The translations under genes and the position numbers were made by a program. This document shows, piece after piece, positions 2,271 to 34,773 of a stretch of 39,304 bases of DNA. Position 1 is the stretch's first letter. Each line of letters opens with the position of its first letter. A model generated the notes under the pieces. That model was not told the DNA's origin and did no database searches. It worked only from the letters and a program-made list of their open reading frames with translations. The stretch comes from a virus (lineage: Duplodnaviria > Caudoviricetes), in IMG/VR virus record IMGVR_UViG_3300016657_000039, positions 1 to 39,304 of that record. One strand, given 5' to 3'.

Positions 2271-2693
2271 TTTAAATAACTTTTTAATTAATTCTATTGG
2301 GTTAAAACTTCTATATAACCACATTGCAATTAATAGTATTAAAATAAGATATAAGATGTATTTAAACGCAATATTTAATAAGTAATTATAATCAACTTCT
2401 TTGCTTTCTTTTTCTTGTTTTAAATCCACTTTAATTGAGCCATTATCTTTTTCTTTTACTACTTCAGTTCTATAGTGGTTTTCTATTATAGTATTTACTA
2501 TTGTATCTTTTCCTATTATCATAGGTTTTTGTGGGTCAAAAGGTTTTAAAGTAAACTCCCCACTTGTTAAACTAAACTCTTTGTCTTTGTTGTAAACGCT
2601 ATCTTTTTTAATTTCAGTTTCTTCACTTGACTTTTTTACAGTGCCGCAACCTATTAATAAGATTGCGGTTAATATTAATGCTGTTTTTTTCAT
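2250..2693 (-). CDS. Lipoprotein with C-terminal transmembrane helix, candidate unimolecular spanin
   Basis: MKKTALILTAILLIG-C lipobox; C-terminal hydrophobic YILYLILILLIAMWLY; near the endolysin. Confidence 0.6.
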   Translation of the reverse strand: MKKTALILTAILLIGCGTVKKSSEETEIKKDSVYNKDKEFSLTSGEFTLKPFDPQKPMIIGKDTIVNTIIENHYRTEVVKEKDNGSIKVDLKQEKESKEVDYNYLLNIAFKYILYLILILLIAMWLYRSFNPIELIKKLFKNKTPLI

Positions 2694-3718
2694 TATACAA
2701 TTTTATAGTTTATAATTCTAATGTTTTTTAATTCGTAATTACCATCTTTACTAACTTTAACGTGTGCAAATCCGTGATTATAATTATTGTATGGTGCATA
2801 TTCTGGTTCTAAACCACATAAACAACCAGTTGACCACGTTGTTGTAACTTCTCCAGATAATGTCTTTTCTGTATGTTCACTTGTTCTGTGGTGGTGTCCT
2901 ACTATACAACTTTCTTTAGCTTTCATAAATAAACCTCTTGCTGGGTTAACTGGTGGCGCAAATCCTCCGAACCATTCGTGACCATGTAATATTGGTAATT
3001 TACCAGCTAAAGCCATTTGTTTATCTTTAACCAAAGTAACTCCAAATTCTCTGAATCTTAAAAGTTGCTCAAGTTTAAAATCGTCAATTCCTAAAAGTTC
3101 AGGAGCTTTAATCATTAAATAATCTTCATATCTTTTTTCGTGGTTTCCTATCTTATAGTAAATAGGACAATTAAAAAGTTCTTTTAGTTGTTTTAAAAAA
3201 CTTCTAACCATTTCCAACTCTCCAGCAATATCTCTTAATCTTCTATTTTTTGTAAATCTTGAACATTGATAAAAGTCAGCAATATCTCCGTTTAAATAAA
3301 TAGCGTTAACATTATTTTCTAAACCATAATTTAAAGCTAATTCTAATGCTTTGTTATCTTGATAAGGAAAATGTATGTCTGATAAAATTAAAATGTTATT
3401 TTGTCCTTTAGGAATAATAAAAGGCTCACATTTTTCATAGTCGCTTTCTGGCAAGTCAATTTTTTTTGACATAAATTGTTTTTTAGTTTCTTCAGAACGT
3501 TCTGAAACTCTTATTACAGTTGAATTTTTACCTTTCATTTCGCCTCTGTAACGCCTTACATTTGAACGTACAGCGTCTACTGAACTAAAATCTAAAGAAT
3601 GTTTTTCAAAAATCATTCTTGAAATAGCCATTGTAGATGCTTTAGGAAATTTAGCAAGATATTCAATAATAATTTCTTTTTTGTAAGTTGCGGAGTTTTG
3701 GTTTCCTTTTTTACTCAT
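2693..3718 (-). CDS. Calcineurin-like metallophosphoesterase with N-terminal extension
   Basis: Motifs SDIH, GDIAD, GNHE, HGH, GHHH. Confidence 0.88.
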   Translation of the reverse strand: MSKKGNQNSATYKKEIIIEYLAKFPKASTMAISRMIFEKHSLDFSSVDAVRSNVRRYRGEMKGKNSTVIRVSERSEETKKQFMSKKIDLPESDYEKCEPFIIPKGQNNILILSDIHFPYQDNKALELALNYGLENNVNAIYLNGDIADFYQCSRFTKNRRLRDIAGELEMVRSFLKQLKELFNCPIYYKIGNHEKRYEDYLMIKAPELLGIDDFKLEQLLRFREFGVTLVKDKQMALAGKLPILHGHEWFGGFAPPVNPARGLFMKAKESCIVGHHHRTSEHTEKTLSGEVTTTWSTGCLCGLEPEYAPYNNYNHGFAHVKVSKDGNYELKNIRIINYKIV

Positions 3719-3744
3719 AATTATTTAGTTTAGAATTATTTAAA

Positions 3745-3752
3745 CAAATTTA
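3745..3752 (-). promoter_or_regulatory. Bacteroidota -7 promoter box for the phosphoesterase
   Basis: TAAATTTG on the minus strand ~27 nt upstream of the ATG. Confidence 0.55.
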
Positions 3753-3784
3753 GTAAAAAAAGTTTACAATTAACAAAAAATCAT

Positions 3785-3910
3785 TATATTTGTGAATGTA
3801 ATCACTGAAAAGTATATAAATTTGGTGAATATAAAATTGAGTTAGTTTAGTTTTTTCATAATTGTTTAGTTTTGGTAAGAAAAGCGATATTTTTTAAGTA
3901 TCGCTTTTTT
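3785..3910 (+). ncRNA. Candidate ~110 nt sRNA (TATATTTG promoter, no ORF, intrinsic terminator)
   Basis: -7 box at 3785-3792; AAAAGCGATA/TATCGCTTTTTT terminator at 3880-3910; internal TAGTTTTTTCATAATT motif. Confidence 0.5.
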
Positions 3911-3921
3911 ATTTAAAAAAG

Positions 3922-3953
3922 TTTGTGTAATTAAAAAATTATGTTTAATATTG
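3922..3953 (+). promoter_or_regulatory. Promoter of the leader/tRNA operon
   Basis: TTTG (3922-3925), 20 nt spacer, TAATATTG (3946-3953, one mismatch to TAnnTTTG); predicted start near the ATG at 3958 (leaderless). Confidence 0.55.
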
Positions 3954-3957
3954 CAAT

Positions 3958-4026
3958 ATGAAATTTACAAAAACAAATACTCAGCATCTTCCGCAACCTA
4001 TTTTAATGGGTGGTATTGGTGTATAG
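3958..4026 (+). CDS. Putative attenuator leader peptide MKFTKTNTQHLPQPILMGGIGV
   Basis: 22 codons; codons 9-14 are CAG CAT CTT CCG CAA CCT; sits between the promoter and a terminator in front of the tRNAs. Confidence 0.65.
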   Translation: MKFTKTNTQHLPQPILMGGIGV

Positions 4027-4051
4027 TATAGTTAAAATATATTTACAACTT

Positions 4052-4086
4052 AAAACCACTTATTAATTTAAGTGGTTTTTTTATTT
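4052..4086 (+). terminator. Attenuator-type intrinsic terminator directly before the first tRNA
   Basis: AAAACCACTTA-loop-TAAGTGGTTTT followed by TTTATTT. Confidence 0.75.
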
Positions 4087-4159
4087 CGAGTAGTGACAAA
4101 ATTGGTTACGCGCCCACCTTGGAAGTGGGAGATTGCAGGTTCGAGTCCTGCCTATTCGA
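4087..4159 (+). tRNA. tRNA-Pro(UGG), weak D-arm, A37
   Basis: Acceptor CGAGTAG/CTATTCG+A73; anticodon arm CCCAC-CTTGGAA-GTGGG; T-arm GCAGG-TTCGAGT-CCTGC. Confidence 0.85.
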
Positions 4160-4257
4160 CGGAGTATAGAAGTGTAAGTTCGAATCTTACTCATTTGCCT
4201 AAATAATGTTAAGACTTGCAAATGATGGTGTAATTGGGAGCACACTTTACGTGATAT
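4160..4257 (+). ncRNA. Circularly permuted tRNA-like element (3' half precedes 5' half)
   Basis: T-arm GTAAG-TTCGAAT-CTTAC + TCATTTGC (4174-4198), 19 nt linker, then GCAAATGA-TG-D-arm GTGT-AATTGGGA-GCAC-A-CTTTAC (4218-4250). Confidence 0.6.
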
Positions 4258-4330
4258 TACAAAATGATGTAATTGGTTAGCATAACAGACTTTGACTCTG
4301 TTTGTTTAGGTTCGAGTCCTAATTTTGTAA
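4258..4330 (+). tRNA. tRNA-Gln(UUG), A37
   Basis: Acceptor TACAAAA/TTTTGTA; anticodon arm ACAGA-CTTTGAC-TCTGT; T-arm TTAGG-TTCGAGT-CCTAA. Confidence 0.9.
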
Positions 4331-4338
4331 CTAAATAT

Positions 4339-4413
4339 GGTGTTATTGTGCTTAATGGTTAAGGCAGTTAGTCTGTGAAACTAATTATATCGGTTCGAAT
4401 CCGATATAACACC
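4339..4413 (+). tRNA. tRNA-His(GUG), A37
   Basis: G-1:C73 pair; acceptor GTGTTAT/ATAACAC; anticodon arm TTAGT-CTGTGAA-ACTAA; T-arm ATCGG-TTCGAAT-CCGAT. Confidence 0.9.
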
Positions 4414-4418
4414 CAATC

Positions 4419-4492
4419 GCTCCAATGGTGGAATGGAATACACAATGGCTTTAGAACCCATTTTTTTGCAAGTTCGAATCTTGCTTGGAGTA
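4419..4492 (+). tRNA. tRNA-Leu(UAG), no long variable arm, A37
   Basis: Acceptor GCTCCAA/TTGGAGT+A73; Leu-type D-arm GTGGAATGGAATACAC; loop TTTAGAA; T-arm GCAAG-TTCGAAT-CTTGC. Confidence 0.8.
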
Positions 4493-4497
4493 CAAAA

Positions 4498-4569
4498 TTC
4501 AGTATAGTTTAATGGATAAAATTTTTGACTACGAATCAAAAGATAGGAGTTCGAATCTCTTTACTGAAA
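4498..4569 (+). tRNA. tRNA-Arg(ACG), A37
   Basis: Acceptor TTCAGTA/TACTGAA; anticodon arm TTTGA-CTACGAA-TCAAA; T-loop TTCGAAT. Confidence 0.9.
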
Positions 4570-4570
4570 C

Positions 4571-4603
4571 AAAAACCGCACTATTAATTTAGAGCGGTTT
4601 TTT
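4571..4603. terminator. Bidirectional terminator between the tRNA operon and the endolysin
   Basis: AAAAACCGC...GCGGTTTTTT. Confidence 0.7.
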
Positions 4604-4647
4604 TATAAGTATTAAAACTTATATTTGTTATTTATAAGTGATTGAAC

Positions 4648-5058
4648 TTATATATTTTTATATTCTGTCTTTGCATCAAAACTTGGACATGCTTTTGCAA
4701 CTCCTTTAAAATCTCTATGACCTTGAACTATAGCGTTAGGAAATTGTTTTTTAGCTTGTTTTATTAGATATAAAAGACTTTCTTTTTGTTTTGGAGTTCT
4801 TGTGTCTTTTGGATTTCCTTTTCCGTCTACACCACCAATATAACTAAAATGTATTGATTCAGAATTATATCCTTTAACTCCATTTGTTACTTGTTCATAG
4901 TTTGCTAATTCGTGAATAATTCCGTTTGAATCTATTAACCTATGATAACCTACAGATTTCCATTTTAAAACATTTTTCCAATAGTTTAAAATAGATTCTT
5001 TTGTTGCGTTCGGTTGTGATGCTGTGCAATGTATTACGATATATTTTATTTCTCTCAT
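4648..5058 (-). CDS. Endolysin, N-acetylmuramoyl-L-alanine amidase (T7 lysozyme/Amidase_2 type)
   Basis: IVIHCTA, GYH, GHRDF...KACPSFD zinc-amidase motifs. Confidence 0.92.
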   Translation of the reverse strand: MREIKYIVIHCTASQPNATKESILNYWKNVLKWKSVGYHRLIDSNGIIHELANYEQVTNGVKGYNSESIHFSYIGGVDGKGNPKDTRTPKQKESLLYLIKQAKKQFPNAIVQGHRDFKGVAKACPSFDAKTEYKNI

Positions 5059-5157
5059 AATTGTTACTTTTAACTTTTATTATATTTTTTCTGTATCAAA
5101 TGTTAAAATTTTATTTTTTAACGTGTTTTTATATTACAATATCTTATCGTTTTTGAA

Positions 5158-5382
5158 TTATTTACAGGCTTTTTTTGCTCTTTCTTTTAAGTATAAATGT
5201 ATTCTTGTAGCTATTATTTTACCAAAATAACCGCAAGCACCCCCAATTATACCAAAAGAAATTACTTTAAATAATTCCATAATATTCTCAACAAATAAAT
5301 GATTCTGAAAATATGCTAATACTCCAGCTCCAGCTCCAGAAATTACTGAAAAAACAGGATTGTGATGTGTATGACTACTCAT
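5158..5382 (-). CDS. Small membrane protein, holin candidate
   Basis: Two hydrophobic segments, basic C-terminus, directly upstream of the endolysin. Confidence 0.55.
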   Translation of the reverse strand: MSSHTHHNPVFSVISGAGAGVLAYFQNHLFVENIMELFKVISFGIIGGACGYFGKIIATRIHLYLKERAKKACK

Positions 5383-5602
5383 TGTTTTCTGTTTTTTTCA
5401 TTATTACTTTTTCAGCAACGTTTAAAACCCATCGCATTTTTATAAAAAACGCAACGCCAACCACAAAAATACATCCCTCAAAGATATAATTATCTGAATT
5501 AATTTGATTTTTAACATACTTGTACAACTGATACGATAAAATTATAGTTCCTATAACTTTAGGAAACCAATAATTAAACGCTCTTTTAAAATTACTTCCC
5601 AT
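5375..5602 (-). CDS. Small membrane protein, holin/antiholin candidate
   Basis: Two hydrophobic segments; lysis region. Confidence 0.5.
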   Translation of the reverse strand: MGSNFKRAFNYWFPKVIGTIILSYQLYKYVKNQINSDNYIFEGCIFVVGVAFFIKMRWVLNVAEKVIMKKTENNE

Positions 5603-6032
5603 ATTTTTTAGAATAAAAAGACTGAATTAGCATCAATAATGTCAATAGCAGTAAACAAAAACTAATAATTTGAAAGTAAAAGTTTGCTGAAAAACAAAAT
5701 ATAACGGCTAAAAAATTAAACAAATAATAAGACGATAAAAACATCGTTGCAGTTGCTTTACGTAAACAGAAATGTAGTCTTTCACGCCACAAGAAAATAG
5801 AGCTTACAAGTAAAAAAAGCACTAATTGAGTTAAAGCAATATAAACAAAATCTTTGTAAAAATCAAAGTTGCTATTTTCTGGAACATAAAACCAATTTAA
5901 AACATTACTATACATTTCAACAAATAGAATAGCAAATATTGAGTAAATAAGATAATTTTTATTTTTATCTTTTAATACTTTTTCTACTTTTTGAGTTGCT
6001 TTACATAGCAAACATCTAGGGACTGATGCCAT
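5592..6032 (-). CDS. Membrane protein (~4 TM)
   Basis: Four hydrophobic stretches. Confidence 0.6.
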   Translation of the reverse strand: MASVPRCLLCKATQKVEKVLKDKNKNYLIYSIFAILFVEMYSNVLNWFYVPENSNFDFYKDFVYIALTQLVLFLLVSSIFLWRERLHFCLRKATATMFLSSYYLFNFLAVIFCFSANFYFQIISFCLLLLTLLMLIQSFYSKKYGK

Positions 6033-34278: not shown

Positions 34279-34773
34279 TTAAAGATTAATAAATTCGTTT
34301 TCTTGTTCTTTTGTAACTGAATATTTTGCTTTTACTTGCTCAAGTGTAAAACCGCCTTGTTTAGCCTTTTTTAATATTTCAGTCGTTGCATTTTGTTTTT
34401 GTTGTACGGCTTTATTTCCATCGTCGTCATCTGCACCAACGCAAACAAAAGATTGTAATGCGTATCTACGTGCGTAACTTATTCCACTACCTTGCGCCTG
34501 TGCATCATTTTGTTTATTGTATATAATTTCTGTTAAAGACTCCATTAACTCGCCAGATTCGTGTAGTAAAATAGTTTTTACAAAGTTATGTCCGTCTACG
34601 TGTACAATAGGCTGTAAGACACTAATTCCGTTTTCGTTTAATGTTGGTATAACAGCCTCACGAATTGCGTTTAAATCTGCGTATTTTGATTTAAAAAATG
34701 GATTTGTAGCACCTTTTTTAGGGTTGCTCATTTCGGATTGTGCTTTTAATAAAGCGGTTGCAATTTGTTTCAT
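34279..34773 (-). CDS. erf: ERF-family single-strand annealing recombinase
   Basis: NPFFKSKYADL; HESGE; QAQGSGISYARRYAL...DDDGN. Confidence 0.9.
   Translation of the reverse strand: MKQIATALLKAQSEMSNPKKGATNPFFKSKYADLNAIREAVIPTLNENGISVLQPIVHVDGHNFVKTILLHESGELMESLTEIIYNKQNDAQAQGSGISYARRYALQSFVCVGADDDDGNKAVQQKQNATTEILKKAKQGGFTLEQVKAKYSVTKEQENEFINL

Follow-up and report, generated by a model that had tools for sequence, protein, structure and literature searches.

The tRNA cassette of this phage is very probably governed by a trp-type transcription attenuator, made up of a short leader ORF, a set of switchable hairpins and a terminator that stand, as read from the sequence, directly in front of five tRNA genes. 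The mechanism is classical attenuation; what is new is the tRNA target, the sensing of a whole class of codons and the modular matching of leaders to tRNA blocks. An earlier, sequence-only reading of this DNA is supported on the attenuator and overlooked the A37 swap, the leaderless start, the mobility, the tRNA-like spacer and the leader-block codon matching described below. The window analysed here (39,304 nt) comprises an entire virus record of 39.3 kb, rated as linear and 100% complete, with a GC range of 24–33%. Among the 44 window proteins scanned against PHROGs, matches were obtained to terminase, capsid, tape measure, primase/helicase, Erf, NinB/NinG, amidase and methyltransferase. PADLOC, applied to 12 window proteins, returned methyltransferase matches only. 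The promoter type and the similarity of the tRNAs to those of Cellulophaga phages point to a Flavobacteriaceae-like host.

Firstly, the cassette is preceded by a promoter and a leader ORF. The promoter (3922–3953, + strand) is of the Bacteroidota sigma-A type, with TTTG at 3922–3925, a spacing of 20 nt and a −7 box at 3946–3953 that is TAnnTTTG-like with one mismatch. A promoter had been noted ahead of the leader and is present, but it has no sigma-70 match and was not called by a sigma-70 scan. The TAnnTTTG box, a consensus likewise given in PMC7366714, is placed at −12 to −5 (PMC9723704), and here it lies 4 nt before the ATG; a leaderless transcript is therefore predicted, with its start (+1) at the A of the leader ATG. 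The leader ORF (3958–4026, + strand), predicted to be leaderless, has 22 codons and translates to MKFTKTNTQHLPQPILMGGIGV. Its translation bears out the proposed run of six consecutive CNN codons (Q H L P Q P; 3982–3999, + strand), which also form the C-rich side of the 1:2 helix; codons 9–14 are the only C-starting codons of the leader. The longest in-frame CNN run across the 56 window ORFs (11,352 codons) is 3, against 6 in the leader. With any frame and both strands considered, the window has 9 occurrences of six C's at 3-nt spacing, so that the window alone is only suggestive and conservation carries the case. A longer C run at 3-nt spacing, at 34419–34442 (+ strand), is antisense to an Erf-like gene and is probably a by-product of the codons of that gene. 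The claim that the CNN codons match four of the five downstream tRNAs holds for Pro, Gln, His and Leu; an Arg codon is absent from the window leader despite the tRNA-Arg in the cassette. The leader codons CTT and CCT are presumably decoded by the UAG and UGG tRNAs only through four-way wobble.

The alternative folds of the leader RNA are mutually exclusive. Region 2, the antiterminator strand (4003–4014, + strand), pairs with 4055–4066 over 12 bp including 2 G-U pairs (−12.6 kcal/mol), which reproduces the duplex first noticed by eye; this pairing closes a longer inner helix, and the whole antiterminator rod reaches −18.5 kcal/mol, more than had been described. The hairpin noted at 3996–4011 is real too and belongs to a longer 1:2 helix. 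An intrinsic terminator with its T tract (4052–4086, + strand; stem 4052–4079) abuts tRNA-Pro at 4087, as had been stated, and is the only terminator-like site called in a scan of 2500–6000. The fold of 3950–4092 has a z of −3.1. In the naked window RNA cut at 4070 the antiterminator is the best fold, and in footprint-constrained folding of the window RNA at full length it wins for A-site codons 11–13, a result dependent on the footprint edge. At cut-off, Rfam reports only tRNAs over 3500–4800 and no leader family; Phe_leader and Thr_leader match weakly, below cut-off.

The five tRNA genes, all on the + strand and all with A37, are tRNA-Pro(UGG) (4087–4160), tRNA-Gln(UUG) (4258–4331), tRNA-His(GUG) (4340–4414), tRNA-Leu(UAG) (4419–4493) and tRNA-Arg(ACG) (4498–4570), that is, one decoder for each CNN box. 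The tRNA-Leu has a short variable arm in place of the long one and measures 75 nt, the length in two host genomes being 83 nt; of 30 cassette copies of tRNA-Leu, 23 were called at less than 80 nt. Two bidirectional terminator-like hairpins, which occur in empty sites too, bound the cassette on the left (3880–3910) and on the right (4572–4603).

Secondly, the leader is conserved. Related loci were sought with patterns built from tRNA features only, blind to the leader, which gave 62 hits among viruses, 12 in genomes and 60 in metagenomes; roughly half of the viral ones lack a tRNA call and are chance matches. A His-containing tRNA cluster is found in 103 loci (the window, L054, L081 and L172 included), and the terminator and leader ORF were then picked by position alone. 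A leader was found in 69 of these 103 loci; 28 clusters belong to other array types or are cut short and have no leader by the positional rule, and 6 were set apart as long arrays. Position-defined leader and terminator are present in 59 of 61 Pro-first cassettes, from which three Pro-first long G37 arrays were kept apart; the two misses arise because both loci are cut off upstream. Removal of copies with more than 90% identity left 41 non-redundant leaders, in which the CNN runs are kept, as the suggested check on related tRNA clusters had anticipated. CNN codons make up 262 of 410 codons (64%) at positions 6–15 of these leaders against 43 of 560 (8%) elsewhere. The ratio of CTN to TTR among Leu codons is 48:17 within codons 6–15 and 18:37 outside, and Arg is written CGN 33 times and AGR twice. 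Promoter spacing is also kept, 30 of the 41 leaders having the box exactly 4 nt before the ATG, against 1 of 55 window genes, and 34 having it at 4–5 nt. In three large phages with long G37-type arrays (L092, L093, L103), a leader and terminator stand upstream of tRNA-Pro, and their leaders mix several codon classes (R, Q, H, T, W, F, C, P) in a way that reflects the arrays. Six Gln-His-Leu-Trp-Ser-Phe A37 arrays (L147, L149, L151, L153, L155, L220), five of them in Melainabacteria/cyanobacterial genome bins, are without the terminator-leader layout.

Thirdly, the switch is conserved. Across the 41 loci the 2:3 duplex averages −11.3 kcal/mol for cognate and −7.8 kcal/mol for non-cognate leader/terminator pairs (permutation p 5e-5), and control stretches (codons 1–11, promoter, spacer) give no such effect. 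Folding with a ribosome footprint, the other check suggested at the outset, predicts that the terminator arm is sequestered at ∼0.7 when the A site lies in the control run and at ∼0.2 from three codons past the run and at the stop; predicted antitermination thus falls within three codons past the run. The 1:2 helix, which uses the C-rich run, is predicted in 36 of the 41 loci. In naked truncated RNA the terminator arm is sequestered at 0.48 on average, and termination is no clear default of the naked RNA. At full-length equilibrium the terminator dominates in most loci (mean 0.78–0.96); the switch therefore needs co-transcriptional, kinetic trapping. The locus thus combines a conserved short ORF with clustered control codons, a terminator between leader and regulated genes, a mutually exclusive 2:3 antiterminator kept across relatives and a stall geometry predicted by folding. 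The trp/his-like logic of 1:2, 2:3 and 3:4 helices is supported by the CNN run, the 2:3 pairing, the terminator and the promoter spacing in 41 loci.

We propose that the unit would work as follows. Because transcription is predicted to begin at the ATG, the 5' end is where the ribosome would load. With codons 9–14 in its A site, a ribosome would block region 1 and leave 4003–4014 free to capture the 5' arm of the terminator, and RNA polymerase would enter the five tRNA genes; a ribosome running on would cover region 2, and the terminator would form. The signal would be that functional CNN tRNAs of the host are lost, and the unit would respond with replacement tRNAs that lack the G36-G37 site. 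The unit would represent the CNN module of a wider design, in which the leader of every tRNA block is spelled in the codons of that block.

The leader codons follow the content of the tRNA block. Of the 13 cassettes with tRNA-Glu, 12 have a Glu codon within leader codons 6–15, against 3 of the 28 that lack the gene (Fisher p 7e-7, kinship uncorrected), and near-identical pairs have CAA or GAA at two positions, which change together with the tRNA-Glu gene. A tree-aware test gave four supported independent pairs, mostly all in the same direction (sign test p 0.125). In L142, L259 and L265 a Glu codon is present although no tRNA-Glu was called, L265 being a counter-example in the tree-aware test. 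Other additions are matched as well: one cassette (L125) adds Asp and CAU tRNAs and its run has GAC and ATA, another (L231) adds two Ser tRNAs and its run has TCT AGT, and a locus obtained after the test (L283) also fits the matching. Three phages (G004–G006) carry a second, converging array of non-CNN tRNAs with a leader of its own, which is nearly CNN-free and writes Arg as AGA/AGG. The cultured phage phi38:1 has three leader-terminator-tRNA units; codons 6–16 of its leaders are read by their own blocks at 91%, 91% and 100%, and by the other two blocks at 0–9%. Over phi38:1, Panino, Gundel_1 and phi4:1 these values are 73–100% for the own block and 0–18% for other block types, the Cys anticodon being assumed in the comparison for Gundel_1. 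A predicted drop in sequestration lies near codons 17–19 in all three units of phi38:1, and folding predicts renewed pairing near the stop in its unit 3 and in phi19:1. In L145 (6310–6662) a second promoter-leader-terminator unit stands before tRNA-Arg, tRNA-Phe and an RtcB ligase gene. Annotated small 'hypothetical proteins' overlap leader regions beside tRNA blocks in phi38:1 (L285; gp066, gp070) and in L287 (PANI_CDS0063); tRNA-Pro is unannotated in phi38:1 and phi19:1, as is the leader in phi19:1.

The cassette moves. Of 80 relatives found through the neighbouring phosphoesterase, 70 cover the site and none has tRNAs there; one of the phosphoesterase-found relatives (L054) carries the same cassette at a different site. 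Empty sites are found in the closest relative (L001, 93%) and in two sequencing-run contigs, where ∼3915–4568 is swapped for ∼60 nt between the two bidirectional hairpins. Another sequencing-run contig has just 3915–4572, in a different context; four sequencing runs were examined as contigs, and these were used for variants and empty sites only. This copy is 97% identical. Its 18 differences include synonymous substitutions at two of the control codons, a stop changed from TAG to TAA, and a compensatory stem pair at 4061/4070, by which an antiterminator G-U also becomes G-C. Copies are also found in apparently chromosomal settings (L152, L238). Judged by these comparisons, the CNN block is a mobile module of ∼650 bp, which moves alone between unrelated phages and bacteria. 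A search of 206 flanking ORFs from 68 loci for a linked protein gene found no family common to more than 5 loci. At the start of the phosphoesterase gene, a 22-nt stretch (3710–3731) is repeated elsewhere in a contig of sequencing run X1.

The cassette tRNAs differ from their host counterparts at position 37. In the non-redundant cassettes of the viral scan, where position 37 was free, A37 is found in 21/21 Pro, 20/21 Gln, 19/21 His, 14/14 Leu and 20/20 Arg genes; three 'Pro' calls and one 'Gln' call, which are misfolded Leu genes, were dropped from the tally, and Gln, His and Leu from the genome and metagenome scans, whose A37 was fixed by the pattern, were not counted. In a Lacinutrix genome, the housekeeping tRNAs for Pro, Gln, His, Leu(UAG, GAG) and Arg(ACG, UCG) have G37 and the other housekeeping genes retrieved have A37; a Flavisolibacter genome (G002) agrees except for A37 in housekeeping His and Arg(CCG). 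Inspected by eye in 31 Flavobacteriaceae genomes, G37 is found for Pro(UGG) in 30 genomes, for His in 20 rows, for Gln in 19 and for Arg(UCG) in 17; His with A37 occurs in no row, clear rows of Pro with A37 are confined to G001 and G033, within accessory arrays, and five TTG-A rows resemble chance matches. The methyltransferase TrmD is encoded by 4 of 4 bacterial genomes tested and not by the phage. The cassette is thus without G37 and the hosts have G36-G37 and TrmD, which indicates that the cassette replaces the host G36-G37 class; exceptions are L091, L113, phi4:1 and the His and Arg(CCG) genes of G002. The A37 swap and the attenuator are separable, since phi4:1 keeps G37 behind its CNN leader and G002 has housekeeping A37. 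Accessory arrays of Flavobacteriaceae genomes (L282, 6081–7160; L283, 4972–5765; L284, 4662–5917) have position 37 changed in other tRNAs as well, Glu and Asp to U37 and Phe and Leu(UAA) to G37.

What selected A37 is a more delicate matter. Attack on G36-G37 anticodon loops by a nuclease or toxin is an evenly poised proposition, independence from TrmD methylation a tentative one with clearly less in its favour, and other causes appear unlikely. We accordingly favour host tRNA damage as the signal and A37 as the evasion over a failure of TrmD, because non-G37 tRNAs join the cassettes, because other blocks share the switch and phi4:1 keeps G37, and because RNA-repair genes adjoin related A37 arrays and a nuclease precedent exists. 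Two RlaP genes and an RF-1-domain gene adjoin the A37 array of L284, RtcB follows the second unit of L145, and L265 has a convergent RlaP. The precedent is VapC-mt11, which cuts after G36-G37 in the anticodon loops of Pro, Leu, Gln and Arg tRNAs and so provides a class-wide threat (PMC6459853); it is a mycobacterial toxin with just two in vivo targets, and no such Bacteroidota enzyme was identified here. In vitro, a change of GG to GA moved its cut by one base and did not abolish it (PMC6459853). Five phage records searched for an encoded PIN toxin or domain gave none. We consider it plausible, if a little short of an even call, that the units form a modular surveillance-and-rescue system for translation in Bacteroidota phages and islands, in which leaders spell the protected codons and detect a destroyed class of host tRNA, resistant replacements are made on demand, and the CNN module answers an undescribed anti-G36-(m1)G37 defence. 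If this were true, leader codons would be a readable list of the targets of such defences.

A broader explanation, which we hold possible but rather doubtful, is a general thermostat of tRNA supply, in which CNN is just one block and A37 is not tied to a specific threat; arrays would be split since one attenuator samples only about ten codons. The coverage of the phi38:1 array by three leaders fits this account, and blocks follow first bases only roughly, with Glu and Leu(UAA) joining CNN and Asn joining UNN. However, the CNN block travels on its own between unrelated phages and bacteria, and A37 is invariant in the Pro and Arg genes, where no search pattern fixed it. Surveillance of host tRNA damage also has to be weighed against a dedicated signal carried by the same switch, namely failure of TrmD methylation at low Mg2+ or SAM, as in mgtL, with A37 bypassing m1G37. 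By analogy this would suit several findings: the cassette coincides exactly with the host G36-G37 set, TrmD is encoded by hosts and is missing from the phage, copies reside in apparently chromosomal settings, and CCG accounts for 36 of 51 Pro codons in leader control zones against 12 of 265 in window genes. Loss of m1G37 in E. coli stalls ribosomes at A-site Pro codons and acts through leader codons (PMC8384417), and A37 tRNAs escape the deficiency unaffected (PMC8643618). On the other hand, Glu, Asp, Ser and CAU tRNAs join with matching codons though their host forms have A37, other blocks carry the same kind of switch, RNA-repair genes adjoin some related arrays, and phi4:1 pairs the same leader with G37 tRNAs. 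The TrmD/mgtL analogy drawn in the sequence-only reading therefore names a possible trigger and not the sole candidate, and as the dedicated signal we judge TrmD failure unlikely.

That translation plays no part, the ORF being a by-product of the C-rich strand of a structural or protein-controlled terminator switch, is highly improbable. The use of the C-rich run by the 1:2 helix would agree with it, but in codons 9–14 of the 41 leaders C occupies position 1 at 84%, position 2 at 22% and position 3 at 19%, and this confinement to the first codon position is evidence against a mere C-rich pairing strand; moreover, the leaders preserve start, frame and stop, indels 3' of the run retain a stop, codons track tRNA content, and non-CNN leaders of the same architecture exist. 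Codon compensation, the standard account of phage tRNAs (PMC10264068), by which the cassette would supply heavily used phage codons at a fixed, dampened expression, is the least credible of all, since CNN makes up just 10% of the phage codons (11,352 codons in the 56 window ORFs), Leu is mostly TTA, and the tRNAs are absent from all 70 relatives that cover the site.

The nearest known systems share parts of this design. Amino-acid operon attenuators include trpL, hisL, leuL and pheL and the multivalent thrL and ilv leaders. Like the phage unit, they have a short leader with clustered control codons, 1:2, 2:3 and 3:4 helices and a terminator before the regulated genes. They regulate enzymes, whereas the phage unit would regulate tRNAs: the genes downstream are five tRNAs and not, as for trp, his and thr, genes that make or load the sensed amino acid. 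In the phage, by contrast, the control codons span several amino acids as a first-base class, and the unit is mobile in phages and has a leader predicted to be leaderless. Control by mgtL acts through Rho. In Salmonella mgtL and E. coli leuL and ilvL, leader codons for TrmD-substrate tRNAs likewise control downstream transcription (PMC8643618, PMC8384417). The output of mgtL is a Mg2+ transporter, whereas that of the phage unit would be the A37 decoders themselves, behind an intrinsic terminator. PARIS and a T5 tRNA are reportedly a case of a phage tRNA set against a tRNA-cleaving defence. Phage tRNAs that counter such defences likewise have altered anticodon loops and replace the attacked host tRNAs (PMC10264068, PMC11555353), but the accessible parts of these two papers describe expression from strong promoters and neither a translation-coupled sensor nor a class-wide G37-to-A37 swap. 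The nearest leaderless case is that of the mycobacterial polycysteine attenuators, in which a leaderless short ORF also serves as codon sensor (bioRxiv 10.1101/834739); they act on the ribosome-binding site of enzyme genes and involve one amino acid only, whereas the phage unit would control a terminator before tRNAs. A literature search over largely open papers found neither an attenuator that acts on tRNA genes nor an A37 swap across a whole class, and the phi38:1 transcriptome paper, as far as accessible, mentions host tRNA genes only (PMC5335546).

Why phages carry tRNAs is a 50-year-old question, and a tRNA sensor that responds to stalling would argue for conditional rescue over codon compensation. 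It would extend attenuation to a feedback loop that acts on the decoders themselves, and it predicts a class-wide anti-tRNA activity in Bacteroidota. The unit may also serve as a natural reporter of tRNA damage, and its genes as a tRNA set that is naturally independent of TrmD. Cultured systems exist, with phi19:1 and phi38:1 on Cellulophaga baltica and Panino on Maribacter.

The spacers between the tRNA genes also contain structured RNAs. Between tRNA-Pro and tRNA-Gln, positions 4161–4257 (+ strand) form a YrlA-like permuted tRNA look-alike, also seen in L106 (1696–1782) and L250 (785–870), with a T arm, a loop-closed acceptor stem and a D arm in this order and no anticodon loop. The YrlA Y RNA has the same order of elements (PMC4201824), but the spacer shows no Ro60-binding module, and no Ro60 gene was named among the 44 window proteins scanned against PHROGs. 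The Rfam model of YrlA (RF02553) reached 18 bits in L250 against a cut-off of 69 and gave no match in the window. An RNAalifold consensus of the three spacer copies lacked the tRNA-like fold; the permuted domain is visible in each copy, and covariation is not significant with only three sequences. As a guess, the spacer might act as a decoy. A second conserved structured spacer RNA of ∼57 nt stands right after tRNA-Pro in L054 (2691–2751), L112 (1410–1470), L142, L216, L242 and L259, and in Gundel_1 (L286) and phi4:1 (L288) as well; it contains a 7-bp stem that covaries and a GACTGTTA-like motif that is invariant, and the theta ribozyme did not match it by eye. A long tRNA-like spacer element with D and T loops occurs in L265 (1024–1171) and L275 (1390–1534), and the Pro-Gln spacers of L087, L225 and L253 form a hairpin of 41–45 nt.
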